DNA of 19,155 bases from an uncultured Nitrososphaerota archaeon (lineage in GTDB: Archaea; Thermoproteota; EX4484-205; JAAOZO01). The DNA lies in contig CAYOYV010000019.1 of NCBI GenBank assembly GCA_964408285.1, positions 1 to 19,155 on the forward strand, read 5' to 3'. A program made the translations under genes and the position numbers. Every line of letters begins with the position of its first letter. Within the stretch, counting starts at the first letter, position 1. Positions 337 to 18,227 of the stretch are shown piece by piece. Below the pieces are notes generated by a model that was not told the origin of the DNA, searched no databases, and was given only the letters and a program-made list of their open reading frames with translations.

Positions 337-344
337 CGCGCGTG
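337..344. repeat. Intergenic alternating CG tract CGCGCGTG
   Basis: Seen directly; one copy of the dispersed junction motif. Confidence 0.7.
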
Positions 345-550
345 AAGTACTTCGTCTGTCTGACCTACTACTTATGCAGTTCATCGAGTTCGTTGAGGAA
401 ACTCTGATCCCACTCAAAACGCTACCGCCAGCGCTGCGTCGGGGAGGTCTAAAGCTCTTCATCGAAAAATACTCAACTCCAACGGATCTCGCTTCATCGG
501 ACATGACCCACATGATCAAGTGCATGAGAAGCCTTGAACCCGATCCGTGA
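341..550 (+). pseudogene. Possible degraded internal fragment of an HhH-GPD base-excision glycosylase (MutY/Mig/Nth-like)
   Basis: Frame from 341 reads ...FVEETLIPLKT...LFIEKYSTPTDLASSDMTHMIKCMRSLEP*. This resembles 'E.LLQKT...F..KYPT..DLA.AD...I..LG' of HhH-GPD enzymes. Recognised by eye only. Confidence 0.3.
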
Positions 551-640
551 GAGCTGGAGCACTCAAAGAGCTCAGATAAATCTCGCGGTTACTTTCATTT
601 TTATATAACCAGTTGTATATATTTTCTGGTGTGAAGGAGC

Positions 641-1933
641 GTGGGGATAACAGAGATCAGAATTACGAGAGAGGTATGTGAAAAGGCTCCGGGTCCGTCA
701 AAATGTGTAAGCCGGAACCAGAGCTATGTTGGTGAAGGTCTCAGGAGGGTCGATACTCGAACCGTCACGAGCGAATCCGATTATGCGAACGAAATATACG
801 TTCGATATTCGGAAGACAATGGGAAGACTTGGACGGCTTGGCAGGATGTTTACAGAGAGGCCTACAGAACACGTGGTGACATGGAACTGCTGTGGTCGAA
901 ACCTGAAAGTGGAGTCTACAACCGTTTGCACGGCCACTACGTTGCGCTGAACATGCAGAGGCTGTTTCTAGAGAACCATCATGAAAGCTACAAGAAATTC
1001 TGGGGGGAAGGGAAGAAAACTTTCACCGATCATTGCTTTCTCTGGGTGTCGAAGGATCTGAAAGATTGGAAATGGCAGCAAGTGAAATACGAGGATGGAA
1101 CAGATTTCAGCGAAGACGACTGGGGGCGTGAAGGCTATGTCAACATCAACGAAGCATATTCGGGATGTAATCTGGAAGTGCTGGAGAATGGAGACATCAT
1201 ATTCCCCGTCGGGGCAAACGTCATGAGTTGCTGCAGAATCCTCGGCATAGATGTAAACGATGTGTTCCCGTCCTGTCCGCAGATAATGAACGGACTCATT
1301 GTTTCCAGGGGTAGATGGAATGAGGCGGAGGAGAAGTATTATCTCGCCCCGTCGAAGCCCGCTGTGATCTCTGATCTGAAATCATCGAGAGGTATTGATG
1401 AACCCACAATAATGCCATTGAAGAGCGGCAGGATCATCGTGGTATTCAGGGGCTCCAATGTCATGTCCAAGGGCTGGAATACGAGGATACAGAAGGGGAC
1501 CCCTGCCCACAAGTGGTACACATTCTCCGACGATGGGGGCAAAACATTTACGGAGCCAGTGCCGTGGCACTATGACAACGGAGAGGTCTTCTACTCGCCG
1601 GCATCCATTTCACAATTCCTGAGAAGCACGAAGAACGCCAAGGTCTACTGGTTCGGAAACATCACGGGGCCTGAAGCCTATGGCAACAGCCCCAGGTATC
1701 CCCTCGTGATGGCGGAGGTAGATGAGCAAACAGGCTTTCTGAAAAGGGAGACCTACACCGTGATAGATAACCGTGATCCAAAAAAGGAGTCCGAAGCACT
1801 TCAGCTCTCGAACTTCGGGCTACTTGAGGACAGAGAAACCAAAGACATCGAGCTCTATTTGACGAAATTAGGGGCTAACAGGGAGGATCAATGGCGTTCG
1901 GATGCATACAGATACATCATAGAGGTCAAGTGA
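641..1933 (+). CDS. Sialidase-like / BNR Asp-box beta-propeller protein
   Basis: 430 aa with Asp-boxes YSEDNGKTW and FSDDGGKTF, DEPTIMPLKSGRIIVVFRG and PRYPL. GGAG precedes the GTG start and TTATATAA lies at 601-608. Confidence 0.8.
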   Translation: MGITEIRITREVCEKAPGPSKCVSRNQSYVGEGLRRVDTRTVTSESDYANEIYVRYSEDNGKTWTAWQDVYREAYRTRGDMELLWSKPESGVYNRLHGHYVALNMQRLFLENHHESYKKFWGEGKKTFTDHCFLWVSKDLKDWKWQQVKYEDGTDFSEDDWGREGYVNINEAYSGCNLEVLENGDIIFPVGANVMSCCRILGIDVNDVFPSCPQIMNGLIVSRGRWNEAEEKYYLAPSKPAVISDLKSSRGIDEPTIMPLKSGRIIVVFRGSNVMSKGWNTRIQKGTPAHKWYTFSDDGGKTFTEPVPWHYDNGEVFYSPASISQFLRSTKNAKVYWFGNITGPEAYGNSPRYPLVMAEVDEQTGFLKRETYTVIDNRDPKKESEALQLSNFGLLEDRETKDIELYLTKLGANREDQWRSDAYRYIIEVK

Positions 1934-1960
1934 AATGTAGATGAGCAGAATGGCCATCGT

Positions 1961-1970
1961 CACGCGCGCG
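1961..1970. repeat. Intergenic alternating CG tract CACGCGCGCG
   Basis: Seen directly between the sialidase-like stop and the next promoter. Confidence 0.8.
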
Positions 1971-2027
1971 AGCGCCTTCGTGCTATGAAAAGTCTTAAGA
2001 ATAATGATGGCAGATATTATGAGGAAA

Positions 2028-2291
2028 ATGGGCTTGAGTGAGTCTGTTGCCGATTTCCTGCAGTCGCTTCTTCGAATATTCGCCATGATTGTGCGTTTTG
2101 GTGGGACCCTGAGTGTAGCTCTGATAGTGCTTGCCCTTGGCTGGATCTCCAACGAAATAACCACGCGTGCATTTGGAAGCACCGTCTTTGAATTCTTCGG
2201 CTCTTGGATGTGGGTGTTCGCCTTGCTCCTGCTTGTTCTATCGCTCCTTATCATTTATGCTGTGAAACGGATTGGTGGCCTTGAAGAATGA
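2028..2291 (+). CDS. Small hypothetical membrane protein (2 TM); ORF is open from 2004
   Basis: Two hydrophobic stretches. Start placed at 2028 because the BRE/TATA-like GAAAAGTCTTAAG at 1987-1999 is too close to ATG 2004. Confidence 0.6.
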   Translation: MGLSESVADFLQSLLRIFAMIVRFGGTLSVALIVLALGWISNEITTRAFGSTVFEFFGSWMWVFALLLLVLSLLIIYAVKRIGGLEE

Positions 2292-2480
2292 AGGGACACT
2301 TTGTCTGAAAAATATCTGATCGGACCTATCACGTACGGTTGCTCAAAGCTCACACTTGCCACTGGATCGGCATCAGATCCCATCTTCTTCTTACTTGGCC
2401 CAGATCCTTCACCGAATATCGATGAGGCTAAGGAATGCCTCTTGGACCTGTTTGGGTGGAGATAATCTTTCTGATAATCT

Positions 2481-2492
2481 TTCGCGCGCGAA
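2481..2492. repeat. Palindromic CG tract TTCGCGCGCGAA
   Basis: Perfect 12-bp palindrome just upstream of the oxidoreductase promoter. Confidence 0.8.
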
Positions 2493-2539
2493 GAGTTAGT
2501 AGAAAAACTTATTGACCTAGTTGTGGAGGTTCGGCAAAT

Positions 2540-3541
2540 ATGACTCAGAGAGTATTTAGGTGCGGCATAGTCGGATATGGCCCAGCCTTCAATATGGGAA
2601 AGTATCATGGAGAGGTGATAAGCAAGACTGCTGGCCTTGAGCTGGCCGCAGTGTGCGACAAGGACGAGAGCAGGCTCGAAGCTGCCAGGAAGGATTTTCC
2701 AACGGTCAAGATCTTCAGCAATATTGAGTCTATGCTTGAGAACGGACATATAGACCTGGTCGTCATCGTCACTCCTCACAACACACACGCGGAGCTAGCC
2801 CTGAAAGCGTTGAGAGCTGGGAAGCATGTCATAGTGGAGAAGCCCATGTGCATAACTGTTAACGACGCAAACGCGATGATAGATGCGGCCAGAGAGAAAC
2901 AGCTCATGCTAACCGTCTTCCATTGCAGAAGGCTGGACGGAGATTTCTTGGCAATAAAGAGGATTATTGAAGGCGGGGTGGTAGGTAGGGTTTTCCACGT
3001 AGAAGCCTTCGGAGGTAGTTATGAGAATCCGGGGAAATGGTGGCGATCAGACAAAACGATCTCTGGAGGAGCGATGTACGACTGGGGGGCCCACTTCACG
3101 GACTGGATCCTGAACATAGTTCCAGAGAGAGTTGTCGGTGTCAACGGGTATTTCCACAAGCTGGTATGGAACGACGTTACGAATGAGGATCAAGTTGAGG
3201 CGACCATAATATTCGAATCAGGCGCAGTAGCAGATCTCCAGCTATCGAACATAGCCATTGTGGGTAAGCCGAAGTGGAGAATTCTGGGCTCCAAAGGAGG
3301 CATTGCTGTTGATCAAGGCGGGAGGCTAATCCTCTATGTGTATTCTCAAGGCTATAGGTTTGAGACAAATGTTCCGTATAAGGGAAGCGATTGGAGTCCA
3401 TATTACACGAACATAGTTGAGCACCTCTTGCTGGGCAAGGAGCTTTTGGTGAAGCCTGAGGAGGCAAGAAGAGTGATAGCAATAATGGAGGCAGCGGAGA
3501 GATCATCCAAGTCCGGGACTACGGAGCGAGTATTCCTCTAG
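2540..3541 (+). CDS. Gfo/Idh/MocA family NAD(P)-dependent oxidoreductase
   Basis: GIVGYG Rossmann motif, TPHNTH, AGKHVIVEKP, GGAMYDWGAH. GGAGGT SD at 2525-2530. Confidence 0.95.
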   Translation: MTQRVFRCGIVGYGPAFNMGKYHGEVISKTAGLELAAVCDKDESRLEAARKDFPTVKIFSNIESMLENGHIDLVVIVTPHNTHAELALKALRAGKHVIVEKPMCITVNDANAMIDAAREKQLMLTVFHCRRLDGDFLAIKRIIEGGVVGRVFHVEAFGGSYENPGKWWRSDKTISGGAMYDWGAHFTDWILNIVPERVVGVNGYFHKLVWNDVTNEDQVEATIIFESGAVADLQLSNIAIVGKPKWRILGSKGGIAVDQGGRLILYVYSQGYRFETNVPYKGSDWSPYYTNIVEHLLLGKELLVKPEEARRVIAIMEAAERSSKSGTTERVFL

Positions 3542-3561
3542 GGGATTCCATTCTGGTCGCT

Positions 3562-3621
3562 CGCGCTGAATCACTCGCATGCGCTCCCGAGATAGGCTCG
3601 TGCGCGTTGCGCGTTCCGCGG
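3562..3621. repeat. Cluster of degenerate CG tracts (CGCGC, CGCATGCGC, CGTGCGCGT, TGCGCGT, CCGCGG)
   Basis: Five tracts within 60 bp downstream of the oxidoreductase stop. Confidence 0.65.
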
Positions 3622-3686
3622 CCATCTCTAGTACAGTGAAGAGAGCAGATACTTTGGGGAGAGATGTCTCTTTGCATGAAACAGAA

Positions 3687-3697
3687 ACGCGCGTGCA
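3687..3697. repeat. CG tract ACGCGCGTGCA
   Basis: Directly upstream of TTTATA at 3700-3705. Confidence 0.8.
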
Positions 3698-3699
3698 GA

Positions 3700-3706
3700 T
3701 TTATAG
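3700..3706 (+). promoter_or_regulatory. Archaeal TATA box (TTTATAG) for the 3732 gene
   Basis: About 26-32 nt upstream of the ATG, typical of a leaderless or short-leader archaeal transcript. Confidence 0.6.
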
Positions 3707-3731
3707 CCTGTCACATTAAGACTTATAGGGA

Positions 3732-4127
3732 ATGAGCGATCCAATCACCGATGTAATCCAAACGATCATCTTGTGGGTAATCAACATCGTCGGATGGATA
3801 GTGGGGTTGTTTGGCCTCGGCGCTACCTTGATTTGGTGGGCCGCTGGAATGGGAGGAATTGGGGCACTTGTGTACTACATCCTTATCAAGCCAATATGGT
3901 TGAAGGCGAGAGGGCCTGGAAGGACTGAAAAGGAGATGAAGGATTTATCTCAGAAGATGAGTGAGATTGAGGCAGAAATTAGCGCTGATGATCAAGCATA
4001 TCGAACATACGGGACGAGGCGTCTTACTGAAGAATACAGGAAGGAGCGACAAAAGGAGTTGTCGGAATTGAGGAAGGAGTACTGGGCTGCTGTTGAGGCG
4101 AAAGAGAAGGAGGAGAAGAAGCGCTAA
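3732..4127 (+). CDS. Hypothetical membrane protein with C-terminal charged coiled-coil
   Basis: Hydrophobic N-terminal half, E/K/R-rich helical C-terminus, own TATA box. Confidence 0.7.
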   Translation: MSDPITDVIQTIILWVINIVGWIVGLFGLGATLIWWAAGMGGIGALVYYILIKPIWLKARGPGRTEKEMKDLSQKMSEIEAEISADDQAYRTYGTRRLTEEYRKERQKELSELRKEYWAAVEAKEKEEKKR

Positions 4128-4205
4128 GCATCCCCGCGAAGGACTGCCTTTGATATGTTCACACTTCTGTACAGTTAGCTGAGCTGATCTGAAATGAGAT
4201 TACAA

Positions 4206-4631
4206 TCAACAAACCTCTACCTTCTCCCTAAGAATCATCTCGACCAATTCATCTTCTGTCACAAGCTTGTCCTTGATCCGCCAGGCCGGGACACGATCGC
4301 CTTGATCTCGAAGGGGAATGGCTGTCTCTGATTTGCCCAGACGAACGTAGTAATGAGTAGCGTCTTGGTCGTGTATGTCGGGCCATTTCAGATTCAGGGA
4401 CCGGTGCTGTTGTCCTGCCCTTTTCACCAGTTCAGGAACTTCAACCGAGCGTTTCCTTTCCTTGTTCATCTCCTCAATTCCAGCAGCAATCAGCGCTCCG
4501 CCAATGACAATCGCCACGAACATCAAAGTGGAGGATGCTTGAGGGTTGATCGACGATATTCCTAACCATATCAATCCGATTGCCAGTGTGGCAATTCCAA
4601 CAGCGATGATTTTCTGGTAATCTTTCATCAT
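4206..4631 (-). CDS. Hypothetical membrane protein (2 N-terminal TM plus soluble domain)
   Basis: 141 aa with two clear TM helices. Minus-strand TTTTATA at 4678-4672. Confidence 0.7.
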   Translation of the reverse strand: MMKDYQKIIAVGIATLAIGLIWLGISSINPQASSTLMFVAIVIGGALIAAGIEEMNKERKRSVEVPELVKRAGQQHRSLNLKWPDIHDQDATHYYVRLGKSETAIPLRDQGDRVPAWRIKDKLVTEDELVEMILREKVEVC

Positions 4632-4634
4632 TCC

Positions 4635-4667
4635 CCCACGCGTGCTTTCATAACCGGCCCACGCGTG
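4635..4667. repeat. Direct repeat CCCACGCGTG x2 (4635-4644, 4658-4667)
   Basis: Two identical 10-mers with a palindromic CACGCGTG core, 23 bp period. Confidence 0.8.
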
Positions 4668-4722
4668 TTTGTATAAAAGGTTGCAACATATCTAGAGACC
4701 GGGACGTCCATCGACATCGTAG

Positions 4723-4731
4723 GCGCGCGTA
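4723..4731. repeat. CG tract GCGCGCGTA
   Basis: About 20 bp downstream of the stop of the 4752-5138 gene. Confidence 0.75.
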
Positions 4732-4751
4732 AGACAAAATGGGCGATGAGT

Positions 4752-5138
4752 CTATGCACGATAATAGAACACTGTGAAAGCTACAGCAAAGGCAGCCATG
4801 ATGAAGACGTCCGTCCAATACACGGCCGGAAAACCACCGAAGATCACCCCATACGCTGCTGCAAAGGTGCCAATTATGCTCCAGACGACCTGCATCTGAA
4901 GCACGATCTTTATCCTGTCCCATGACGTCTCCTTGTAAGCTAACCAAGAACTCACCGAAAGGCCAATCTGCGTTGCGCCCAGCATCCGGGCAATACTCAT
5001 CGCCCAATCCATAACGGGTAAGCCTGTCAACCTCGCGTACATGTCTGGGATCAGGAGAAGGACAAGTCCGAAGACGCCGGCAACAATGACGTGAACAAGA
5101 AATGTAGTCCCCAGTCCACTTGGGATCTTCCTCTCCAT
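4752..5138 (-). CDS. Hypothetical 4-TM membrane protein (MERKIPSG...)
   Basis: Four hydrophobic helices. Start set at ATG 5138 because minus-strand CTTATA lies at 5168-5163; the ORF track extends it to 5198. Confidence 0.8.
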   Translation of the reverse strand: MERKIPSGLGTTFLVHVIVAGVFGLVLLLIPDMYARLTGLPVMDWAMSIARMLGATQIGLSVSSWLAYKETSWDRIKIVLQMQVVWSIIGTFAAAYGVIFGGFPAVYWTDVFIMAAFAVAFTVFYYRA

Positions 5139-5180
5139 CTCGTTCGACCTAGGCCGTGAGTGTATAAGCGTTATGAAACC

Positions 5181-5188
5181 CGCGCGTG
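5181..5188. repeat. CG tract CGCGCGTG
   Basis: Lies between two divergent promoters. Confidence 0.75.
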
Positions 5189-5246
5189 AGGGAGGCAACC
5201 TCGGAAATGCTCATTAACCGAAACAGGACTGCAGGTATCAGTAGCC

Positions 5247-6080
5247 TTGCCAATTCACTCGCAATCTATTGGAGTAAAAGCGCCGAAGTCCGTGAAGACG
5301 TATGCTGATGTGCAGATTCTGACCGCAAAGAAGGCCCAAATACGCAATGGCGACCGAGTTCTGGACTGCGGGACTGGTCCAGCGGCGTCTCTTGCGCTAA
5401 GACTTGCTAAGCTGGTGGGGGAGAAGGGCAAGGTGGTAGCGATAGATTGCGAAAGGGAGTATATACCCAAGATAAAGGACGCGATAGCCAAAAGCAGTCT
5501 CTCCAATAGGGTTTCATTCTTGGTCGCCGACCTCAGGTATACCCCAATAAGGGATTCCTCGATGGATGCTTCTTTGTCGCTTGACACGGTGCAGAACATG
5601 CATGGCAACGGGGGCAATCCTGAGGATACAGTCAAAGCATATATCAAGGAGTCAGCGAGAGCAATCAAATCGGGAGGAAAGCTCGTCGTCGGCACTAGAT
5701 TTCCTGTCCCAAGGAACGTAGCTCAAAGAGCCTACATGGAATACCGTCTGTTCTCCCGGAAGCTTGAGTATGCGCTCTGGAAAGAAATCTCCAGATACTA
5801 CTTTGAACATGAACTCATCTCTTGGTTCAACGAAGCTCGTTTGCGCGACACTGAAGTTGATATCATTGAACACAAGATTCTTTTCCCAAGGGATTTCCTT
5901 AGCAGGCGAAGAGAACGCGTCGGGCCCAGTCTAGACAAGGTTGCGGCTCGTTCGACAAGGGAAGAGTTGAGAAAGGAATTCCATAAGCTGCTGAAGACAA
6001 CGGAGAAGTATGGAGAAGAATGGTTGCCAACGCTCCTGATATCTGCCACAAAAACAGGCCGAAGCGCGCGCGTTAAATAA
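5247..6080 (+). CDS. Class I SAM-dependent methyltransferase (UbiE/Methyltransf_31-like)
   Basis: VLDCGTG motif I, GKVVAID, ADLRYTP..DSSMD, IKSGGKLVV. Confidence 0.9.
   Translation: MPIHSQSIGVKAPKSVKTYADVQILTAKKAQIRNGDRVLDCGTGPAASLALRLAKLVGEKGKVVAIDCEREYIPKIKDAIAKSSLSNRVSFLVADLRYTPIRDSSMDASLSLDTVQNMHGNGGNPEDTVKAYIKESARAIKSGGKLVVGTRFPVPRNVAQRAYMEYRLFSRKLEYALWKEISRYYFEHELISWFNEARLRDTEVDIIEHKILFPRDFLSRRRERVGPSLDKVAARSTREELRKEFHKLLKTTEKYGEEWLPTLLISATKTGRSARVK
6064..6073. repeat. CG tract GCGCGCGCGT
   Basis: Within the last six codons of the methyltransferase ORF. Confidence 0.8.
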
Positions 6081-6165
6081 TGTGCTGATATTGTCCACAG
6101 GGATTCTTGGATATGCCGGTCATCTTCTGGCCGATTCCATCAGTCGGGTTGGAATGCCAGACTGA
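6073..6165 (+). pseudogene. 3' remnant of a membrane-bound metal-dependent hydrolase (YdjM-like)
   Basis: Frame reads LNNVLILSTGILGYAGHLLADSISRVGMPD*, matching the family motif GYxSHLLxDxxTxxGxP. No N-terminal part is present. Confidence 0.5.
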
Positions 6166-6175
6166 CGCGTGCGCG
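6165..6175. repeat. CG tract ACGCGTGCGCG
   Basis: Overlaps the TGA of the remnant and precedes the next promoter. Confidence 0.8.
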
Positions 6176-6182
6176 GGCTCCA

Positions 6183-6194
6183 GAAAAAGTTATA
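6183..6194 (+). promoter_or_regulatory. BRE-TATA (GAAAAAGTTATA)
   Basis: Purine-rich BRE plus TTATA about 28-32 nt before ATG 6222. Confidence 0.65.
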
Positions 6195-6221
6195 GCACGC
6201 TTGGCCGGTAGAACCGGGAGA

Positions 6222-6458: not shown

Positions 6459-6543
6459 AGCGCACCCTTCGGCCTCTGGAAATGAAGAGTTCGCCAGAAA
6501 TGGTTCAATAATTCCGGCTTATATATCAGGAGTTTGACCCAGT

Positions 6544-6554
6544 CACACGCGCGC
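6544..6554. repeat. CG tract CACACGCGCGC
   Basis: Lies between the TATA box (TTATATAT 6519-6526) and ATG 6563. Confidence 0.8.
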
Positions 6555-6562
6555 TTTATCCT

Positions 6563-7012
6563 ATGATTTCTGTAGAAGAAAGACATAAGAGCCAGAGAGC
6601 AGTTCTGTTTCCAAGGTTGTGGGCCGCTGTAAAAGGCTTGATCTTGCGACCTCTTGAGTTCAAGACATCCGTAGCGATTGTCTTTGCTGTCCTTGCAGCA
6701 TTATTGTCAGTGCTTTTTGTCTATCTGGAGATCCACGATTGGATGATGGTGGCATTTTTCTTCAGTCTTACGCTTGAGCTCTTCATTGGGGCGGCCTTAG
6801 AGGAATTCAAGGTCAAGCACTGGAGCCTTTCGTATCTAGCGATTCTCTCAATAACCCTGTCTTTTCTATCCTTCCTTCTGGTTCAAGTGAGTATGCTCAG
6901 CCTCTATCCGTTGGCTGTAATCGGGTGGATGGTATTCGCCCTCCCGCCCCTAGCAAACATCTCATATAATCTCTTGATGATAAGCAAAGTACAGCAGCCG
7001 AGGAACCTGTAG
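6563..7012 (+). CDS. Hypothetical multi-pass membrane protein (4 TM)
   Basis: 149 aa, highly hydrophobic, with an upstream TATA box. Confidence 0.7.
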   Translation: MISVEERHKSQRAVLFPRLWAAVKGLILRPLEFKTSVAIVFAVLAALLSVLFVYLEIHDWMMVAFFFSLTLELFIGAALEEFKVKHWSLSYLAILSITLSFLSFLLVQVSMLSLYPLAVIGWMVFALPPLANISYNLLMISKVQQPRNL

Positions 7013-7024
7013 GAACGACCACCG

Positions 7025-7135: not shown

Positions 7136-7156
7136 TAAGAGGATAATTGAAAAGGC

Positions 7157-7164
7157 CACGCGCA
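7157..7164. repeat. CG tract CACGCGCA
   Basis: Between the ICMT remnant and the PHP gene promoter. Confidence 0.65.
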
Positions 7165-8268: not shown

Positions 8269-8279
8269 GGGTATAGAAT

Positions 8280-8992: not shown

Positions 8993-9517
8993 CTACCTGG
9001 GGACAAATGCACTAAGGAAGGGCAGAATTAGGATGATCAAGGTTGCACAAGCGAGAACATACAACAGGACTAGTTGTCTGCGGCTGGATAGAAGCCTTGA
9101 ATCGCTGTAAATCTCTTTATATATAGGCAGGACTAGTCTGTCGAAAAACAGAAAAGGCGTGCCGAGCATCAAAGCCATCCATAGCAATGCTATCGGTGGG
9201 TATGGAGCAAAAACGTGTGCATGCAGAAATCTCATCATTCCGTATGCGTGATCCGTGAATATGAGGCCAATCATCACAAGCGAGAAGAGGGCATTTAGCC
9301 ACGCATAGACCTTTAAGATCACCTTTGAATTTCTATCCTTTACCAAGTGGCCCAAGAGCCAAACTACGACCAATACGAAAAATGGTGGAATCAAGGCGCC
9401 CGCGATTGCTTTTTTCGACTCGGAGGTTTCTGGCAAACCAATCAAAATGCCATTAATCGTGCTCATGATCAGTATGAGCCAGTCAAATGCACCATCTATG
9501 TTGTCTCCCATGAACAT
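8993..9517 (-). CDS. Hypothetical multi-pass membrane protein (about 5 TM)
   Basis: 174 aa hydrophobic ORF with a minus-strand CTTAAGA TATA-like element at 9541-9535. Start is 9517 or 9511. Confidence 0.7.
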   Translation of the reverse strand: MFMGDNIDGAFDWLILIMSTINGILIGLPETSESKKAIAGALIPPFFVLVVVWLLGHLVKDRNSKVILKVYAWLNALFSLVMIGLIFTDHAYGMMRFLHAHVFAPYPPIALLWMALMLGTPFLFFDRLVLPIYKEIYSDSRLLSSRRQLVLLYVLACATLIILILPFLSAFVPR

Positions 9518-9583: not shown

Positions 9584-9597
9584 TCCGCGCGCGCGGA
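9584..9597. repeat. Palindromic CG tract TCCGCGCGCGCGGA
   Basis: Perfect 14-bp palindrome containing (CG)5, the longest pure CG run in the window. Confidence 0.85.
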
Positions 9598-10035: not shown

Positions 10036-11088
10036 ATGGCAAGGCGAGTCAGGTCTTTCTGGGTCATCACTTCAGCCATCTTCGAGAATCCTGAAAAGCA
10101 CATCGCGGAGTTGGAGTATCTAGGAGCGGATGAGATTTTCATTCTTGTTCCCTATGAAACCTTATGCCCGAACGAGCAACCCGTCGGGTCAGATCAGCCA
10201 AAGAGCAGGGACATCATCAACCCTGTTCTAGCCCAAGCGAAGAAACATGGACTGAAGGTGCACGCTTGGATCGTGTCCCTCAGGAGGCCAAGCAGTGTGC
10301 TTACTTCCTCTCACAAGGACTGGTATGTCGTCAACCGGAACGGGGACAGTTGCGTCGACAAGCCGGCATATATCCCCGACTACAAGTGGCTCTGCCCCAG
10401 CCAAAAGGCCCCTTCTGAGTATTTGCTCGGCGCAATCCACAAATTCCTCGAGCGCTTCGATGTGGACGGCATTGAACTTGACTACATTAGGTTCCCCGAT
10501 ATGTTTCTGCCGAAAGCGCTAAGACCAAATTATGGTCTCGATAGAGAAAGGGAAGTATATAGACCGGAATTTGATTTCTGTTACTGTGACACATGCAGGG
10601 AGGGATTCAAGAGAGATCGGGGCCCGGATCCATTTGATGTCGAATTTGGCAGCAAATCCTGGTATCAATGGGTGCGGTGGAGATCCGATAGCCTGACAAG
10701 TTTCGTGTCAAGGTTCCACAGGACGGTCAAGTCTTATGACGGATCTATTGAAACGTCGGCTACCGTTTTTGCTACTCCAGGTTTAGCTTACAGGTACGTC
10801 TTCCAACGTTGGGCGGCTTGGCCACTGGATCATCTAGAGCCGATGATATACCATGAATATTATGACAAACCAGTGGAATGGATCGGGGAAGCCGTCGCGG
10901 AGGGGATCTCGACCGGAAAGAGGATAATTGCCGGAGTTCTGCTTGGGTTTCTTAGGAGACCTGAAGATATTCATGAAGCAACGAAGAGCGCCGTCCAGAA
11001 CGGAGCAGAAGGAATATGCTGCTATTCATATCCTATTGCGCACAATGAACTGAGAGAGGAACTCAGGTCGGCTCTCAGTAAGGTTTGA
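10036..11088 (+). CDS. Glycoside hydrolase-like family 10 (GHL10/DUF187) TIM-barrel protein
   Basis: AKKHGLKVHAW, WLCPS, VDGIELDYIRFPD, CYCDTC, FQRWAAW, PMIYH. Confidence 0.85.
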   Translation: MARRVRSFWVITSAIFENPEKHIAELEYLGADEIFILVPYETLCPNEQPVGSDQPKSRDIINPVLAQAKKHGLKVHAWIVSLRRPSSVLTSSHKDWYVVNRNGDSCVDKPAYIPDYKWLCPSQKAPSEYLLGAIHKFLERFDVDGIELDYIRFPDMFLPKALRPNYGLDREREVYRPEFDFCYCDTCREGFKRDRGPDPFDVEFGSKSWYQWVRWRSDSLTSFVSRFHRTVKSYDGSIETSATVFATPGLAYRYVFQRWAAWPLDHLEPMIYHEYYDKPVEWIGEAVAEGISTGKRIIAGVLLGFLRRPEDIHEATKSAVQNGAEGICCYSYPIAHNELREELRSALSKV

Positions 11089-11094
11089 CGCGCG
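11088..11094. repeat. CG tract ACGCGCG
   Basis: Overlaps the TGA stop of the GHL10 gene. Confidence 0.75.
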
Positions 11095-11327: not shown

Positions 11328-13737
11328 GTGGTTTGGATGAAAGGCGGCCAAAACTTAACATCCAATCATTTCGACACCAATGTCGATACGGGATTAAGCC
11401 CCGAGGAGGTTCAAAAAAGGCTGAAGCAATATGGATACAATGAGATCGCAGAGAAAAAGGAAAGCCAGATTTCCAGATTCATCAAGAAATTCTGGGGGGT
11501 ATCGCCTTGGATGTTGGAAGCAACAATAGTGCTAGAATGGGCCACGGGAAAATATCTGGAGATGTATATCGTATTGGGCCTTCTGCTTTTCAATGCGACC
11601 TTGGGCTTCTTCCAAGAAGAGAGAGCGAATTCAGCCCTCGAGCTCCTCAAGCAAAGGTTGAGAATCAACGCAAGAACTAAGAGAAATGGAATTTGGGCAA
11701 TGGTTCCAGCAAGGGAACTCGTCCCCGGAGATGTTGTCAGAGTAAGGGCAGGTGATTTCGTCCCCGCTGATGTTGAAGTGTTAGAAGGAAGCGCGGAGGT
11801 GGATCAGTCCGCCCTGACTGGTGAATCCTTGAGCGTAGAGAAGAAGCTTGGCGATTTCCTCTACAGCGGCTCGACTGCTACAAGGGGAGAGATTACGGGA
11901 ATCGTTAGCTCGACGGGCACGAAAACATACTTTGGGAGAACCGTTGAACTAGTTCAGATAGCCCGGCCCAAGTTGCATGTGGAAGAGGTTGTCTCCAGAG
12001 TCTCTACGTGGCTTCTCATAATCGTCGTCGCCATGTTTTCAGTAGGGCTGGCCCTAGCTGTATTAGAAGGCATAGACCTTATCGAGATTATTCCACTAAC
12101 GGTCATTCTTCTCCTTTCAGCAATACCAGTTGCACTGCCAACAATGTTCACAATAACGATGGCACTGGGCTCTCTGGAGCTTGCGAGGAAAGGAGTACTG
12201 ATCACCAGACTGGATGCAAGCGAGGACGCAGCCACCATGGATGTAGTTTGTGCGGACAAGACTGGCACGATGACCATGAACAAGCTCTCGATAGCAGAAG
12301 TGATGCCCATTCTTGCACAAGAAAGAAGACGTAATATTATACGGCACCCTGGCATCGCAAGAGGCAAATCAAGATCCTATAGACCTAGCTTTCATAGCAG
12401 CTGCAAGAGACATGCAAATCACTCCGGAGGGCTATCGACAGACAGAATTTGTTCCATTTGATCCTACAACTAGAAGAACAGAAGCCACGATAGAAAAAGG
12501 AAGTGAACGATTCCGCGTATTGAAGGGTTCGATCGCAACAATAGAATCGATGTGCAAGAACTCACGAGAGGAACTGACTGAGATGAATAGGATCGCCGAA
12601 GGGTCGTCGGCAAAGGGATACAGGGTGATTGCAGTCGCCAAAGGATTGACAGAAGAAGACATCCGATTGGTAGGCGTAGCAGCTCTTTATGACAGACCTA
12701 GATCTGACTCATCGAAGCTCATAGGCGAGCTCAGAGATCTCGGTATTTCCGTGAAAATGCTGACTGGCGATGCCTTGCCAATAGCTAGAGAAATGTCGAA
12801 GCAACTGGGCCTGGGAGATAACATAGTCAAGATGTCGGATCTGAAAGACACAACTAGAGAAGACAGGAATTCGCAAATCATAGAGCAAGGCGACGGCTTC
12901 GCCGAGATTTATCCGGAAGATAAGTACCTCATTGTCAGAAATCTCCAGAAAAGAGGACATGTGGTGGGTATGACGGGCGATGGAGTCAATGATGCTCCGT
13001 CCCTAAGACAAGCCGAAGTTGGAATAGCAGTCAGCAATGCAACGGATGCAGCAAAGAAGGCTTCCAGTGCGGTTCTCACCACAGAAGGACTGGAAGGAAT
13101 AGTGGATCTGGTAAAGACCGGCAGAACAATATTCCAGAGAATAGCAACGTGGATGATAAACAAAATGATCAGAACGCTGAAAAGAGTTGTCTTCGTGGTC
13201 TTGGCCTTCATTTTCACTGGGAAATATGTGGTCTCCACATTTGATATGATATTGCTCCTATTTCTGAGCGACTACGTGACTCTGTCGATCTCAACGGACA
13301 ACGTCAGGTACTCCAAGAAGCCAGAAAGCTGGGACGTGACTGGACTTGTGAGAGGAGGTCTTCTTCTCGGCACCTTGATGGTGATCGAATCTTTCATCTT
13401 GCTCTGTATCGGTCTATCGTATTTCGGCTTATCGAATAATATTGATCAATTGCATACATTCGTCTTCGTCTGGCTTACCTTCGCAGGGTATTTCACCATC
13501 TTAGCGGTCAGGGAGCGTAGGCACTTCTGGGATTCCAAGCCGAGTGGGGCGCTAGCTTTTTCTCTTGTCCTCAATATGGTAGTCGTTTCATTGATCTCAC
13601 TTCTTGGAATACCTGGGGTCGCGCCAATAACTTTCGCTGAATTCTCAACCGTTGTCGTCTATTCGTTTGTCACTTGTCTTCTCCTGAACGATTTCGTCAA
13701 GTTCTCCGCGCTAAGACGGTTCGGATCGATATCCTAG
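11328..13737 (+). pseudogene. Plasma-membrane proton-efflux P-type ATPase (type IIIA), split by a frameshift near 12313-12325
   Basis: ORF 11328-12461 has GLSPEE..RL..YGYNEI, DQSALTGES, IPVALP and the DKTGT phosphorylation site. ORF 12313-13737 continues with QDPID, PFDP, KG, DRPR, MLTGD and MTGDGVNDAPSL. Could be a true pseudogene or a sequencing error. Confidence 0.85.
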
Positions 13738-13745
13738 TGCGTGCG
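13737..13745. repeat. Alternating tract GTGCGTGCG
   Basis: Overlaps the ATPase TAG in the 22-bp convergent gap. Confidence 0.5.
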
Positions 13746-13759
13746 ATGCCTTCAGTAAC

Positions 13760-16321
13760 CTAGTGAGCAAAACGATGCTTCAAAGTAACTATCTCGTAAG
13801 GGTTCACTTCTCTGGCTTTTCCTTTCTTGATCGTATTCTTGAGAAAATCGGTTGAAGATATGGTCGTAGGCCGGACGAAGTGTTCTATGTTCATCAGTCC
13901 TCGCTTTCCCGCGCATTCGTAGAGTCTGAGAATGATGTCTTCATCATCGACGTACAGAGCTGTCATGACGAGGTTTTCTGGACTTGTCTTTAGAAAGGCA
14001 AGGGTCCTTGGAAGTTGTTTCCCTCCTTCATCTGTTTTGACTGTGCTGATTAAGGGATGCAGATATTCTTGAGCTCTTTGAGCTAGATTGGCATTACGCC
14101 AGTTCCCGTTGAAGAAATACATAGCGTATCTGAATTCGTGCTTTCCAATGCCTGAAACATCGGATATGATCCTGAATTGATTCTGGTTTTTCTCATCAAG
14201 ACTTTGCAGTAGGATGTTAGACACGGTGTTTCCCTCAACTACGTAGCCTGGATGGCCGGTGTTGATTAGGCACATGCCCGAAGCATTGTCTGTTAAGGCC
14301 ACCCATTCGTCAGCCCAGCAGACTGTGCAAGACCCTTTAGTGGAACCTACCGTTCTTGAGAAGAGATGCAATGAGTATCCTTCTCTTTCTACTCCATATA
14401 GAGGTTCCTCAGATAGGTCTGTTTCCTCTGCCCCAAAATGGATGTGGCGTATGGCTATGGGATTTCTCAGGCTTGATTTGAGCGGAAACGCGACTCTATA
14501 TCGCATGTTCTTCTCTGAGCAATCTAGCTCAATCTTGAGGTCTATTCTGGGAATTTCATCGTAAATAAGAATGTCTTGGCTAACTCGGCTCTTACCAATG
14601 TGGCCTTTCACCCTCAGACAACCTCTCACAGGGCCTTTCTCAACAATTTCGACCGATCTGGGTTTGAACCTTATGGTGCCGTTTGGTTTGAAGTGGAGTT
14701 CGGCTACCTCTTCTCCTACATCCGCCAATAATTCATTGCCGAGAACTTTATCAGTCTTTAGGAGCTCACGCCCAGTTTGTTTGTCCACAACGCTTTTCAT
14801 CAGTCCTCCTTCTAGTCCGATTCTGAAGAAACGGTTTTCCAAAAGGTCGTTTGAGACTTGCAAGCTTTCTCCTCCTTGTTCGGTCCTCCCAGTATCCCCA
14901 ACTATGCTGTAGGTTGTATATCCTACGGAGGGGACATGGGCCGTGAATATGATTTCGGCTTCCCTCAATACGCCATTTCCATCACGCCGCTCAGAGATAA
15001 CTTGGCGTTTAACCTCATTTCCTTCAATATCTAAGATGCGGAAGTCCTTTGTCCCCTTTGGGAAAGATATCTTAGACGAGACTACGTCTCTTCTACTGCA
15101 ATTACAGACGTTTAGCACTATGATGGAGCCTGCGGGAGAATTCACGAGCTGAGATATGAACTGCGTTTTCTCGTGAATCACTTTTTTCGCCCACTCCTCC
15201 ACTGACGATATGATCTTGATCATGGGCCAATAGTCTTCGTCGAAATAATAGATTGGCTCATGATGTAGCCAATAGCAGAACTCGCGCCAAGCTTGGGTGA
15301 AGCCCTGCGATGGATAATCAGCACCCAGTAAATACACTAACGTAGAGAGAATTTCTGCTTCTAGAAGTGCTCGGCTCGTTCTCTTCGCAGCAACCGTAAA
15401 ATGATCCGCTCTGAAGCCATAAATGCCTCCAGTCCAGCCCACTGGATCCAAGGTACCTCGATACGTTGGTAATCTCCTTTGCTCCAGCGCGCGGAAAAAG
15501 TCGGATAGAGTCGCGACCTTTAAGCGAGGCTTCCTAAGCCTCTCGTTCCACCACTTAACGAACTCGGTGAGCATAATCGAAGGGAGCTTCCAATCCCCAG
15601 CGTCGTGGCATAGGATGACATCGCTATTTGAAGCCTCAGCGGTTTTTCCCAATTCTGTCTTGAATCTCTGAGCGACGATCGGGAAGAATGCATGATTCTG
15701 TTCGAAGTGGTTTGAACTAGTCGGGAATGGCCCGCCTCCATATATATGTATGTGACATAGAGCTCTTGACCCATCTAATCCTTCCCACCAGAAGGAACTC
15801 GGTACGCCTTTTCTTTCAAGAGCTTGGTTAGGCCTGTCGATCTTATAGTAATCGTATCCAAGCTTTCTAGCTATCTGTGGGATCTGCGAATGGTGATAGG
15901 CTATGTCAGCCAGATAGAATACGGAATTGTCCGCATCTTTTCCGAGCTTGATATTGAACGTTTCCTCGTAGTACTTCTTCCCCTCGATCACGTTTCTGAC
16001 CAGCGTTTCAGCATCGACATCAACGAACTGAGGGTCGCTCATCATGCAACTGGGCAAGCCTATTCGGCCCTCAAGAATTAGCTTCCTGATCCTCGGAAGG
16101 AACTCGCTATAGGATTTGAGAAAATCTCTGATTTCAACAGCTTCGTGGATGCCTTCCCAGCGGTAATCTTTGAAATTCTCTAGGCAGTCGAGCATGGAGA
16201 ATATGACGCGGTTGGCTTCTCTCTCAAAATAAGTTCTGGGAGCCCTCCAGCTCCAATCCATGTGGGAATAGGGCACGATATACACTGCCTTGAGATTCTT
16301 GATTTTCATAGATCTGGCCAA
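13760..16321 (-). CDS. Glycoside hydrolase family 38 (alpha-mannosidase-like)
   Basis: VPYSHMDWSW metal motif, DAETLVRN..GKKY, LADIAYHHSQIPQI, FWWEGLDGS, GDW, VPSVGYTTY, LENRFFRI, VEKGPVR, IILRLYE, PYEIVTL. Start is TTG 16321 or ATG 16309. Confidence 0.92.
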   Translation of the reverse strand: MARSMKIKNLKAVYIVPYSHMDWSWRAPRTYFEREANRVIFSMLDCLENFKDYRWEGIHEAVEIRDFLKSYSEFLPRIRKLILEGRIGLPSCMMSDPQFVDVDAETLVRNVIEGKKYYEETFNIKLGKDADNSVFYLADIAYHHSQIPQIARKLGYDYYKIDRPNQALERKGVPSSFWWEGLDGSRALCHIHIYGGGPFPTSSNHFEQNHAFFPIVAQRFKTELGKTAEASNSDVILCHDAGDWKLPSIMLTEFVKWWNERLRKPRLKVATLSDFFRALEQRRLPTYRGTLDPVGWTGGIYGFRADHFTVAAKRTSRALLEAEILSTLVYLLGADYPSQGFTQAWREFCYWLHHEPIYYFDEDYWPMIKIISSVEEWAKKVIHEKTQFISQLVNSPAGSIIVLNVCNCSRRDVVSSKISFPKGTKDFRILDIEGNEVKRQVISERRDGNGVLREAEIIFTAHVPSVGYTTYSIVGDTGRTEQGGESLQVSNDLLENRFFRIGLEGGLMKSVVDKQTGRELLKTDKVLGNELLADVGEEVAELHFKPNGTIRFKPRSVEIVEKGPVRGCLRVKGHIGKSRVSQDILIYDEIPRIDLKIELDCSEKNMRYRVAFPLKSSLRNPIAIRHIHFGAEETDLSEEPLYGVEREGYSLHLFSRTVGSTKGSCTVCWADEWVALTDNASGMCLINTGHPGYVVEGNTVSNILLQSLDEKNQNQFRIISDVSGIGKHEFRYAMYFFNGNWRNANLAQRAQEYLHPLISTVKTDEGGKQLPRTLAFLKTSPENLVMTALYVDDEDIILRLYECAGKRGLMNIEHFVRPTTISSTDFLKNTIKKGKAREVNPYEIVTLKHRFAH

Positions 16322-16324
16322 TTA

Positions 16325-16334
16325 ACGCGCGTGT
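16325..16334. repeat. CG tract ACGCGCGTGT
   Basis: Between the minus-strand TATA box (TTTTTAT, 16347-16341) and the GH38 start. Confidence 0.8.
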
Positions 16335-16402
16335 CAGTAGATAAAAAGTTCCCTTGGCACCCTCTATGCGTCCACCCTTCACTCTTCCCATCCAGCGGTT
16401 GA

Positions 16403-17485
16403 CTATTGCTGAGAGGCCCATTGAATGAATTCATCGGTGCTTGAGAATTTCTTATACTGAGTCTGCGAGAAGACGAGTGTTATGCGAACATTTTTCTGAC
16501 CTTGGTTATTCCAGTATTGGATCCAGTCACCTACGGCGGTGCCAACGTCTTTGGAAGCAAGGTTCCCAAGAGTGTCTCGAGTGAAGAACCTGCCTGCGGG
16601 GTCCAAGATGGTGAGCTTTCCTCCAACGACGGGAAATGCAACGGCCAAATGGCCGCTAGATTCGCTCTGGAATTCAACCACCCATATCGTATATTCCTTC
16701 TTATTGTAGTTCCCTATCATGCTGATTAGCAGTAGGGCTTGGTCCTCACAATCTCCATGCCTATCTGCTATAGTCTCGTTCGGAAACCGCCAAAACTCAG
16801 TTCGCCACTGCAATAATCCGCCCATTTCAGGAATTTCCGGAAGGGGAGAATCATAGCTGTAGGCAATGTTATTTATGACCCAGTCATACATCTTCCTCAG
16901 GTCGCTCCAATATTCATTCCAGTCTGATGTGTTACTCCAACCCCCTGTCACCTGATTGACCAAGTCTCCCACCTTCGTATCATCAGGGGTGACGAAGCTC
17001 TTGCGGTTCTCCGCAAATCCAAGTCTGAGATTGATCTGATCTCTTATTGATGCGTACCAATTCCCTGTATCCGTTTTCTCTGCGCTCAACGAGGAATAGC
17101 GTGACTGAAGAATCGAGTAGGTGGTCTGCAGAGATTGATGTTGCTGTTCGAGTGAAGCATAGGATGTGCGTAGCGATTGATAATTGCTCTGCAGGTCAGA
17201 ATAAGATCGTACAAGATTGCTGTAATTGTCCTGCAGTTGGATGTGTTGCGAATTGAGGGAATTGTAGGAAGACTGGAGGTAGTCGTATCTAGAAGAAAGA
17301 GCCGCATACCTGGTCGAGAGGTCCTGATAGGAAGATTGCAGGCTCAGATATTGATAAAGGGTTGCCACGAGAAGTACTGACATGAATGCAGGAATCAGGA
17401 GTCCCCTGAGATTCCACGCTTGTTTCGTGGCGGCTGGTGGAGGCGGTGCTGGAGGCAATTCATGCAAAACATGACGTCTTGGCAT
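16403..17485 (-). CDS. Membrane-anchored coiled-coil protein with C-terminal transglutaminase-like domain
   Basis: Pro-rich N-terminus, one TM helix, 13 (Y/H)xxL heptads, then a Cys-His-Asp triad (GDCEDQA, GHLA, ILDP). Minus-strand TTATATAA at 17513-17506. Confidence 0.85.
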   Translation of the reverse strand: MPRRHVLHELPPAPPPPAATKQAWNLRGLLIPAFMSVLLVATLYQYLSLQSSYQDLSTRYAALSSRYDYLQSSYNSLNSQHIQLQDNYSNLVRSYSDLQSNYQSLRTSYASLEQQHQSLQTTYSILQSRYSSLSAEKTDTGNWYASIRDQINLRLGFAENRKSFVTPDDTKVGDLVNQVTGGWSNTSDWNEYWSDLRKMYDWVINNIAYSYDSPLPEIPEMGGLLQWRTEFWRFPNETIADRHGDCEDQALLLISMIGNYNKKEYTIWVVEFQSESSGHLAVAFPVVGGKLTILDPAGRFFTRDTLGNLASKDVGTAVGDWIQYWNNQGQKNVRITLVFSQTQYKKFSSTDEFIQWASQQ

Positions 17486-17564
17486 TCTTCACAAATTCCT
17501 GATGATTATATAAGCATGAATCTGTCAAAATCCAAGAAAAGCGCTCATGGCACGGCCATCTCAT

Positions 17565-17606
17565 CGCACGCGAGGTGCCATCATCAATGTGCGTGTAGTC
17601 GCACGC
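17565..17606. repeat. Cluster of alternating tracts (CGCACGCG, ATGTGCGTGTA, CGCACGC)
   Basis: Three tracts in the divergent intergenic region. Confidence 0.55.
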
Positions 17607-17689
17607 TGCAACTTTCGCCTACAGGATTATACAGATGATGCTAATACACGCTTATAAACAGAGGCAAGCTATGTCTCATCGAGAGGCAT

Positions 17690-18217
17690 TTGCCAGTTTG
17701 TCCCCATTGCGGAAAATTGATACGATTTGACTCAAAATACTGTGGACAATGTGGCAAGTCAGTTGATCTCAAGGGCGAATACCTCCCCGCCCCGCCTCCT
17801 CCGATCGAATCAGAGAAGAGGGAGTCTATTCCGACGGGCGAGATATCCATTATGGAGGAGGAGATTCCAGACAGCTCGAGACTTCCTGGAGTTGATATTG
17901 AGAAATTCCTAGGTTTTGACGAAAGGATCATCTTCCGTACGGAAGGGGAGGTCTGGTTCGGAGATCACAAAGCACATGCGTATGTCACGAACAATCGCAT
18001 CTTGTTTTATCACAGAGAACCAAAGTTGATGGATTCCTTTCAGGAAGATGAGCTGGACGAGATATTCCCAACTTCGGTGAAAAGAATTTCACTTGTGGAG
18101 AGCGGGCTTATCGTGAAGAAGATGACGCTTAGAATGGACGAGCACGAGATTGCGGGAGACCGTAATGATCTCATCGGCCTCTACAAGGCGATCCAATACG
18201 TGCGGGCTCAGGCTTGA
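17690..18217 (+). CDS. Zinc-ribbon protein with putative PH-like C-terminal domain
   Basis: CPHCG...YCGQCG, a Pro-rich linker, then ERIIF...AYVTNNRILFY typical of bacterial PH/GRAM-like domains. TTATAAA at 17652-17658 and a GAGAGG SD. Confidence 0.8.
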   Translation: MPVCPHCGKLIRFDSKYCGQCGKSVDLKGEYLPAPPPPIESEKRESIPTGEISIMEEEIPDSSRLPGVDIEKFLGFDERIIFRTEGEVWFGDHKAHAYVTNNRILFYHREPKLMDSFQEDELDEIFPTSVKRISLVESGLIVKKMTLRMDEHEIAGDRNDLIGLYKAIQYVRAQA

Positions 18218-18227
18218 ACGCGCGCAT
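18218..18227. repeat. CG tract ACGCGCGCAT
   Basis: Immediately follows the TGA of the zinc-ribbon gene. Confidence 0.8.

Follow-up and report, generated by a model that had tools for sequence, protein, structure and literature searches.

Short alternating C-G tracts in the intergenic DNA of an uncultured Nitrososphaerota archaeon and their association with gene-unit boundaries and variable DNA

Repetitive extragenic palindromes (REP) and bacterial interspersed mosaic elements (BIME) are extragenic palindromes of bacteria, 20-40 nt in length, with a conserved head and an imperfect stem, and they occur together with REP-associated tyrosine transposases (RAYTs). The highly iterated palindrome HIP1 of cyanobacteria is plentiful inside genes too and embeds the methylated sequence CGATCG. 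Palindromic insertions resembling filler DNA or P nucleotides are known from repaired breaks, as are the excision footprints of transposons. Here we report on perfect alternations of C and G, (CG)3 or longer and termed tracts in the following, in a 19,155-nucleotide stretch of DNA from an uncultured Nitrososphaerota archaeon (the window, analysed at its full length) and in the genome to which it belongs. An earlier note, made from the letters of the window alone, had seen CGCGCG at nearly every gene junction and had proposed an integron-like gene-capture or shuffling system with the tracts as crossover sites. The observation is confirmed and is stronger than that note could know, and the tracts, which are (CG)3-5 in this genome, form a family of very short iterated palindromes that extends over the whole genome, is specific to certain lineages and is nearly confined to non-coding DNA. 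No description of such a signal was found in the literature, supplementary tables lying outside the reach of the search.

When compared to REP and BIME elements, the tracts are alike in being extragenic palindromes present in hundreds of copies, in favouring gene 3' ends and convergent gaps, in a copy number that varies strongly between close species, in unconserved positions and in copies that arrive as inserted units. They differ in measuring only 6-12 nt, in having no conserved head and in their unstructured flanks. Also, a Y1 transposase (PF01797, the RAYT type) was found in none of the 17 genomes of a tract-rich sister genus and gave a single match in the genome studied here (C42:61-390, on a contig of 2 kb); here and below, absence of an enzyme means that it was not found in genomes that are 57-100% complete. 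With no Y1 match in the sister genus, RAYT-type mobilisation was provisionally set aside as an explanation. With HIP1 the tracts share a very short palindromic sequence, a many-fold over-representation, lineage-specific versions and an unknown function, but inside genes they are no more frequent than expected, and a search of this genome for a C5 methylase was negative. Like the attC sites of integrons, tracts are met directly past the stop codons of unrelated genes, at the boundaries of gene units. However, neither an IntI-type recombinase nor imperfect inverted repeats of 55-140 nt were found here, the genes are of mixed orientation with promoters of their own, as read from the sequence, and inserted segments come with one tract or none. 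Similarly, small perfect-palindrome insertions at indel sites, often with adjacent bases lost, recall filler or P-nucleotide DNA, but here the inserted palindrome is always a C-G alternation and not derived from its flanks, and Ku was absent from all 31 genomes searched, for which reason Ku-dependent end joining was dropped. Finally, the tracts are of the same sequence class as the Z-DNA-prone patterns 'GC6' and 'GC8' (Huang and Mrazek, 2014; PMC4060949). In that broad survey of prokaryotes, alternating G-C runs of at least 6 nt are reported to be generally suppressed, whereas here they are over-represented in intergenic DNA, from 5-fold for the 6-mer to 24-fold for the 8-mer.

A word of alternating C and G in non-coding DNA

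The window is the whole of contig C19 in a genome (G000) of 1.82 Mb and 46 contigs, which is 93.7% complete with 2.6% contamination. The G+C content is 49%, and CpG is mildly depleted (0.83 of expectation). Genes were called genome-wide in a crude way, from open reading frames (ORFs) with the longest-ORF start, and intergenic DNA is therefore slightly understated. Against a first-order Markov background, as the earlier note had suggested for a check, CGCGCG was found 211 times in intergenic DNA where 44.6 were expected (z = 24.9; 0.85 per kb) and is the most over-represented intergenic hexamer, whereas its 149 occurrences in coding DNA (0.095 per kb) are at the expectation of 163.7. For intergenic (CG)4 the corresponding numbers are 60 and 2.5. 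Among 281 tracts, 217 measure 6 nt, 49 measure 8 nt, 14 measure 10 nt and one measures 12 nt.

In the window, all 13 positions at which CGCGCG had been reported carry it. The 18 overlapping matches, which make up 13 tracts, stand against 2.54 expected (standard deviation 1.59, largest value 8), a number reached by none of 200 dinucleotide-preserving shuffles. These shuffles together with the Markov counts in the genome rule out chance or base composition as the source of the tracts, and repeats or a CRISPR array behind the window count are ruled out by tract flanks that are all different. Siting between genes or at gene ends was confirmed as well, with 15488 as the sole tract deep inside a coding sequence. 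A perfect tract of at least three units occurs at 12 of the 19 gene junctions of the window, so that the statement of a tract at nearly every junction describes the window, but it does not extend to the genome, where 12.3% of 1203 intergenic gaps contain one. The window is the second-richest 20 kb stretch of the genome for tracts; its intergenic DNA holds 10 in 3.84 kb where 3.0 are expected (Poisson P = 0.0012 before correction for about 90 windows).

The signal is narrower than the strict purine-pyrimidine alternation that had been taken for the property shared by all sites. Alternating purine-pyrimidine runs of at least 8 nt that lack a (CG)3 or (GC)3 core number 584, when compared to 508 ± 22 in shuffles (15% above), whereas those with such a core number 110 against 28 ± 5 (4- to 6-fold). 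Enrichment is thus confined largely to runs with a C-G core, and general alternation is ruled out as the signal. Among dinucleotide repeats, only CG/GC is enriched and the others are at expectation. Each further CG unit is gained with ratios of 0.17, 0.31 and 0.28, where 0.057 would be expected, up to a ceiling: 13 intergenic runs have 5 units and none has 6 or more. Slippage of a microsatellite was ruled out, for there are no runs of at least 6 units in intergenic DNA, other dinucleotide repeats are unaffected and no indels at tracts are seen among those listed at the strain level. Neither conserved flanks nor an extended palindrome around the tracts exist in this genome, as the earlier note had already seen for the flanks in the window.

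Tracts decay mainly by transitions. Sequences one transition away from (CG)4 occur 42 times in intergenic DNA where 8.3 are expected, those one transversion away 47 times where 24.7 are expected; in coding DNA (CG)4 and both kinds of neighbour show observed/expected ratios of about 1. In view of this intergenic halo, the imperfect variants of the earlier note are best read as perfect tracts that have since decayed, and they resemble strict alternation because transitions keep a base in its purine or pyrimidine class. Once present, then, tracts wear away by point mutation, mostly by transitions, into purine-pyrimidine variants. One-off variants are about as frequent as perfect tracts, which argues against strong purifying selection on single sites; by a rough estimate, the ratio of variant to perfect tracts is about that expected from birth and neutral decay.

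Lineage distribution and birth of the tracts

Among 31 related genomes, counts of the 8-mer ranged from 0 to 339. The sister genus prefers the other register, with 339 copies of GCGCGCGC and 132 of CGCGCGCG in genome G008, and T follows at position +1 in 73% of its half-sites, so that the unit of the sister genus is A(GC)nT. Lineages were compared by observed over expected intergenic counts of CGCGCG plus GCGCGC in 40-160 kb sampled per genome. Three species of the sister genus are tract-rich, with 94 found and 7.5 expected in G008, 48 and 3.7 in G012 and 35 and 3.7 in G014, and four congeners are without tracts, namely G010 (1 and 0.4), G013 (0 and 0.3), G015 (0 and 0.4) and G019 (0 and 0.3). 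Clearly, the trait is lineage-specific, and the contrast is not an effect of G+C content because the coding G+C of G012 (0.46) is nearly equal to that of G010 and G013 (0.45 each). Overall, three of the four tract-free congeners resemble the tract-rich species in G+C. In the closest sampled genus of the archaeon's own family (G002; 55% G+C) there is no excess (4 against 5.2 expected), and 45 contigs of other lineages show no enrichment (40 against 43.7). In two of the congeners, G010 and G015, CGCGCG and GCGCGC are absent from about 105 kb of coding DNA where about 11 would be expected. Such strong avoidance would fit a restriction system of that specificity.

How tracts arise was followed in the sister genus, as no relative is near enough to the genome of the window: its genes are scattered, and no synteny was found, in 30 relatives. 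Seven pairs of regions from G008 and G014 were compared, about 80 kb of aligned DNA at 73-95% identity, with five outgroups to give polarity. The aligned blocks contain 16 tracts of G008, and 5 of these, all with identical flanks, are conserved in G014. Among the 11 others, 8 differ by at least three changes or by an indel within the tract although their flanks are near-identical; independent point changes at a divergence of about 11% are estimated to yield such multi-change tracts in roughly 4% of cases. Wherever the outgroups give polarity, which is so at three sites, the tract is the derived state. At L124:11518, about 10 nt (AGCGCGCGCT) have been cleanly inserted in G008 alone; apart from them, G014 and in part the outgroups share the sequence of this gap. 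At L124:13284, G008 has AGCGCGCGCGCT in place of a stem-loop that is conserved in 5 of 6 other genomes, the 5 that align there. This stem-loop (L124:13240-13330; GCAGGG-GGAA-CCCTGC followed by CTGAAAA) lies between two genes. At L124:12648, inside a conserved radical-SAM-like gene, GTGTTC has become GCGCGC, one part of five changes within 16 nt that turn Glu-His into Ala-Arg; no donor copy for this coding patch was found in 160 kb of G008. Also, two records differ upstream of the BNR-like gene, with a tract in the first and about 45 nt of different sequence at that place in the second, and a conserved block of 13.9 kb in L029 contains three tracts in G008 and none in G014.

These comparisons suggest that a tract appears as a whole unit, by a small insertion or by replacement of a short patch, often with the loss of neighbouring bases. 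Such unit-wise birth is directly seen in the sister genus, and the same process presumably acts in the genome of the window; a link of tract birth to the repair of breaks would be a further step. We tentatively read the tracts as unit-born footprints of an unknown process tied to the turnover of indels, be it break-and-rejoin or the insertion of self-propagating micro-palindromes, and give this reading somewhat less than an even chance. Tracts would persist where the sequence may change freely, that is just past stops, in convergent gaps of small size and farther upstream than the promoter zone, and they would accumulate in stretches of gene gain, loss or rearrangement.

Gene ends, variable DNA and competing explanations

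In the genome of the window, tract density is 0.87 per kb in convergent gaps, 0.53-0.68 in tandem gaps and 0.50 in divergent gaps. Behind the stops of tandem gaps the density is roughly flat, and convergent gaps show a peak of 1.4-2.6 per kb in the 30 nt next to a stop, most of the farther bins having 0.3-0.7. Short convergent gaps of 30-60 nt carry a tract in 8 of 50 cases, or 3.6 per kb. Within 40 nt upstream of start codons tracts are depleted (0.15-0.56 per kb, normalised for available positions), and no fixed distance to TATA-like boxes or starts was found. Since tracts occur in all gap types and are depleted just upstream of starts, they are ruled out as a core-promoter element, in agreement with what had been argued for the window. 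Odd-length runs have no orientation bias relative to the gene (13 against 11).

A Z-DNA-prone insulator or terminator had been offered as an alternative. The majority of tracts fall short of the length needed for a stable B-Z transition, and under the twin-domain model negative supercoiling should gather in divergent gaps. A Z-DNA flipon fits the data poorly, with 217 of the 281 tracts at 6 bp, purine-pyrimidine alternation beyond the C-G core barely enriched and tract density lowest in divergent gaps. A search for Z-alpha domains gave no match, and its controls were equally silent.

The same siting bears on a selected function at gene boundaries, in which the palindrome, working both ways, would act as a two-way roadblock, pause or aid to termination of transcription, as an insulator of independent genes from one another or as an mRNA-protecting 3' hairpin. 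The high density right past stops and in short convergent gaps speaks for it, as does the depleted promoter zone, and tracts abound in regions of single genes in mixed orientation. In the sister genus, moreover, one tract took the very spot of the conserved stem-loop described above, and some gaps retain tracts in two species despite diverged flanks. However, a boundary device would be missing from all but 12% of gaps, divergent gaps need no terminator and still hold 0.50 per kb, and the 13.9 kb block of L029 carries three tracts in one species and does without them in the other, as do the four tract-free congeners altogether. One-off variants are as common as under neutral decay, no association with T runs was visible in 86 listed stop-proximal cases, which were judged by eye and unscored, and most tracts are too short for a stable hairpin by an estimate that was not computed. 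Taken together, we consider a selected boundary function unlikely.

Tracts are not spread evenly. Autocorrelation of their presence reaches across about 8-12 gaps (lag 1, 0.27 against 0.10; lag 12, 0.13 against 0.10), so that clustering is a regional property and not a pairwise one. Genes flanked by tracts show more strand switches (0.95 against 0.75 per gene) and longer flanking gaps; their codon use is nearly normal, and a GC3 of 0.557, when compared to 0.554 for the rest, leaves a foreign origin of tract-rich regions unsupported by composition. Two other tract-rich regions contain, as judged by Pfam, assorted single enzymes, a PIN toxin, a nucleotidyltransferase and toxin-antitoxin-like genes, and no integrase or viral hallmark was found among the 20 proteins scanned there.

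Tracts are linked to variable DNA. In or within 30 nt of G008-specific segments of at least 1 kb (12.0 kb) there are 22 tracts, against 16 in 79.6 kb of aligned blocks, a density about 9 times higher. In the genome of the window, intergenic DNA has 1.85 tracts per kb on contigs below 25 kb and 1.05 per kb in the outermost 15 kb of large contigs, 2 to 3.7 times the 0.50 per kb of contig interiors, a pattern that fits a link to strain-variable DNA that is hard to assemble. A tract-poor stretch of 20 kb drew about twice as many DNA matches as tract-rich stretches, although in a DNA-level search the query fraction covered was similar, roughly a third by hand sum, for this stretch, the window and another tract-rich stretch; such match counts would lend weak backing to the notion that tract-rich stretches are accessory DNA. 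That tracts mark gene-unit boundaries and DNA of variable gene content is upheld.

The interpretation that had been given of the tracts holds in part: several indel edges abut tracts, but their use as crossover sites by an integron-like system is not supported. At L027, the 7 nt that part two homology blocks in G008 are exactly a tract, G014 carrying 984 additional nt at this place, and a G008-specific segment of 1.25 kb begins at a tract common to both genomes. A tract lies within 20 nt of one edge in 4 of 7 G008-specific segments. In the window, a contig of run X5 matches as far as 336 and departs from the sequence exactly there, where the first tract (337) sets in, and the first 20 letters of its continuation are absent from this genome, a structural difference at the strain level. 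All four observations would fit the tract as a cause, that is, a fragile or crossover-prone palindrome at which indels and gene exchange start by way of a hairpin or cruciform, stalled replication or a nuclease, which amounts to the idea of the earlier note without its recombinase; the avoidance of the motif in coding DNA of two congeners would fit a nuclease of that specificity. So would inverted repeats of 56 nt on contig C2 (about 197.2-200.1 kb; L136:17001-19943), 84% complementary and each centred on GATAG(CG)nCTATC, which bracket a three-gene segment of 2.8 kb at the contig end. Near this segment there is also a duplication of about 450 nt, with copies 5.45 kb apart, that includes two aspartyl-protease-like genes.

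A fragile site does not explain the clean insertion of tracts into conserved gaps, however, and no tract lies at either edge in 3 of the 7 G008-specific segments, and 4 of 8 'empty' alleles have none. At the strain level, contigs assembled from four runs that cover the whole window, in which rare variants are dropped, were searched for joints at tracts: tracts coincide with none of the 9 indels and with the end of none of the 15 joints that were listed. The tracts at 6548 and 9586 also recur without any change in two metagenome contigs that match the window at 99.9% and 99.4% identity. Tracts are thus stable in the short term and turn over between species. Coincidence of indel edges with tracts is partly confounded because both favour gene ends and intergenic DNA. 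The tract as a cause thus seems improbable to us, even though the data do not separate a fragile or crossover site from a repair footprint.

For the reading of tracts as footprints, too, there are points that weigh against it, the confounding just mentioned among them. Unit birth by insertion or replacement was seen in the sister genus only, at three polarised sites. Some gaps keep tracts in both G008 and G014 (L027 7972/3771, 11890+11947/7421+7492 and 13541/13650) though the surrounding intergenic sequence no longer aligns, and this retention could reflect selection. Neutral accumulation by itself does not predict the excess near stops relative to farther positions of long convergent gaps (about 2 against 0.6 per kb), which would also fit a 3'-end function. 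Gene calls are crude, small contigs could be mis-binned and contig ends serve as no more than a proxy for variability. Finally, searches for Ku, reverse transcriptase, Y1 transposase, C5 methylase and Vsr turned up no candidate enzyme.

Regarding these enzymes in detail, the C5 methylase family PF00145 and Vsr were absent from this genome and from G008, G012 and G014, and among the genomes searched the two occur together only in G007; very-short-patch repair driven by methylation (Dcm/Vsr type) was dropped since neither enzyme was found in the tract-rich genomes named. Reverse transcriptase was found in none of the 31 genomes, and DNA made by it was dropped accordingly. N4/N6 methylase-like matches (PF01555-like) occur in 29 of the 31 genomes, do not track the trait and are uninformative. 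These results also count against a site bound or modified by a lineage-specific DNA-binding protein, a nucleoid protein or an orphan methyltransferase and enriched in the manner of some regulatory methylation motifs. The defined short palindrome with its sharp intergenic ceiling of 5 units would suit such a site, the two lineage versions, (CG)n here and A(GC)nT in the sister genus, look like a shift in specificity, and tracts cluster regionally over about 10 genes. However, positions are unconserved between close species, the spacing from TATA boxes or starts is not fixed, and perfect sites bear no mark of purifying selection. With no C5 methylase found in the four tract-rich genomes and N4/N6 methylase-like matches that do not follow the trait, we regard a binding or modification site as quite unlikely.

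Least probable by far is the integron-like cassette system of the earlier note, in which a site-specific recombinase would move gene cassettes at the tracts. It had drawn on unrelated window genes of mixed orientation separated by tracts, which are present at 12 of 19 junctions, and the scattering of these genes in 30 relatives might be seen in its favour. No tyrosine recombinase (PF00589), not even of the Xer type, was found in the 93.7%-complete genome, while the same search was positive in 14 of 14 control genomes. The window has no attC-like inverted repeats, for which about 55-140 nt would be expected; a single tract lies in an inverted repeat, a quasi-palindrome of 38 nt (2468-2505). The window also gave no Rfam match at gathering thresholds, the presence of an attC model in that library being unchecked. 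Inserted segments are not bracketed by two sites, tracts arise without gain of a cassette, in conserved gaps and even in a conserved gene, and no listed joint of strain contigs falls at a tract. Together with the mixed orientation and own promoters of the genes, this largely refutes gene capture of the integron kind. In our reading the tracts are neither sites of a dedicated site-specific recombinase nor promoter elements.

The window, its genes and implications

The first tract of the window, (CG)3 at 337..342, lies 87 nt past the stop of a gene that ends at 249, and (CG)4 at 1963..1970 lies 29 nt past the stop of a BNR/sialidase-like gene (641-1933). The DNA of this gene shares 78-80% identity with copies from another family's genomes and 87% with a named Bathyarchaeia contig, in which homology begins 35 nt upstream of the start codon in otherwise unrelated surroundings; from the sequence, this looks like gene transfer within the group. 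The (CG)4 at 2483..2490, 49 nt upstream of a GFO/IDH/MocA oxidoreductase gene, forms the centre of the 38-nt imperfect palindrome at 2468-2505. At 3688..3693, (CG)3 is located 38 nt upstream of gene 3732-4127 and directly 5' of the TATA-like ATTTATAG. Between two minus-strand genes, (CG)3 at 4724..4729 lies 22 nt past the stop of 4752-5198, and the divergent gap between 4752-5198 (minus strand) and a methyltransferase gene (5247-6080, plus strand) holds (CG)3 at 5181..5186, within what is probably a 5' over-extension of the minus-strand ORF. The final codons of the methyltransferase gene contain (CG)4 (6065..6072). Of the two tracts kept in near-identical metagenome contigs, the (CG)3 at 6548..6553 (99.9% contig) stands 9 nt upstream of the ATG of 6563-7012, and the (CG)5 at 9586..9595 (99.4% contig), the longest of the window, precedes gene 8993-9517 of the minus strand by 68 nt. 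The (CG)3 at 11089..11094 begins at the first base past the TGA of a GHL10-like hydrolase gene (10036-11088). A GH38 mannosidase gene (13760-16321, minus strand) encloses the (CG)3 at 15488..15493, and another at 16326..16331 falls between the start of this gene and the stop of 16403-17485 (minus strand). Finally, (CG)3 at 18219..18224, with a full alternating run of CGCGCGC, lies 1 nt past the TGA of 17690-18217.

Near-tracts are present at all nine positions for which variants had been listed, but the listed patterns are out of step with their coordinates. At 4637 and 4660 the sequence is CACGCGTG, two near-tracts (4637..4667) that are read as decayed or variant tracts. They lie in one 23-nt tandem duplication (4622-4667; 78% identity) where the minus-strand gene 4206-4631 starts, and CACGCGTG forms the end of each copy. 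At 6165..6175 there is ACGCGTGCGCG, one transition short of an alternating C/G run, and similar near-tracts occur at 3599, 7157, 8220, 9990, 13737 and 17565.

By ORF calls and domain matches, the genes of the window are unrelated, mostly single and of mixed orientation; further products are a PHP-domain protein, a transglutaminase-like protein and several small membrane proteins. A P-type ATPase is frameshifted into two overlapping ORFs (11328-12461 and 12313-13737), its frame being broken shortly past the DKTGT motif, and is either a pseudogene or the result of an assembly error; a contig of run X1 has one additional A after 11349. From 17893 to 19155, contigs of each of the four runs add up to a depth 10-20 times as high as elsewhere in the window, and joints and loose ends are numerous there. 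Two small genes of this part, 18430-18813 and 18820-19155, where the contig terminates, apparently come from a family that is multi-copy or widely shared. The assembled genome lacks rRNA genes (small-subunit rRNA was looked for), and the sequencing runs that contain the window are freshwater-sediment or sediment metagenomes by their labels.

Going beyond the footprint reading, one may speculate that some Bathyarchaeia-like archaea reshape their genomes without a recombinase. A palindrome would be written at rejoined breaks or would itself be the break point, gene-sized pieces would be lost, gained or swapped between tracts, each lineage would have its own version, and the congeners that avoid the motif would presumably cut it. 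We consider this larger picture a doubtful one at present. Runs of alternating G and C, which are reported to be generally suppressed in prokaryotes (PMC4060949), yield the strongest intergenic word in this archaeon. Tracts are switched on and off between species of one genus and are seen being born as whole units. They provide a rare datable mark of small DNA rearrangements within one uncultured group of archaea and a handle on the turnover of accessory genes. For annotation, they flag gene-unit boundaries and variable regions in these genomes. If a dedicated enzyme does write or cut these palindromes, it would represent a new DNA-transaction activity.

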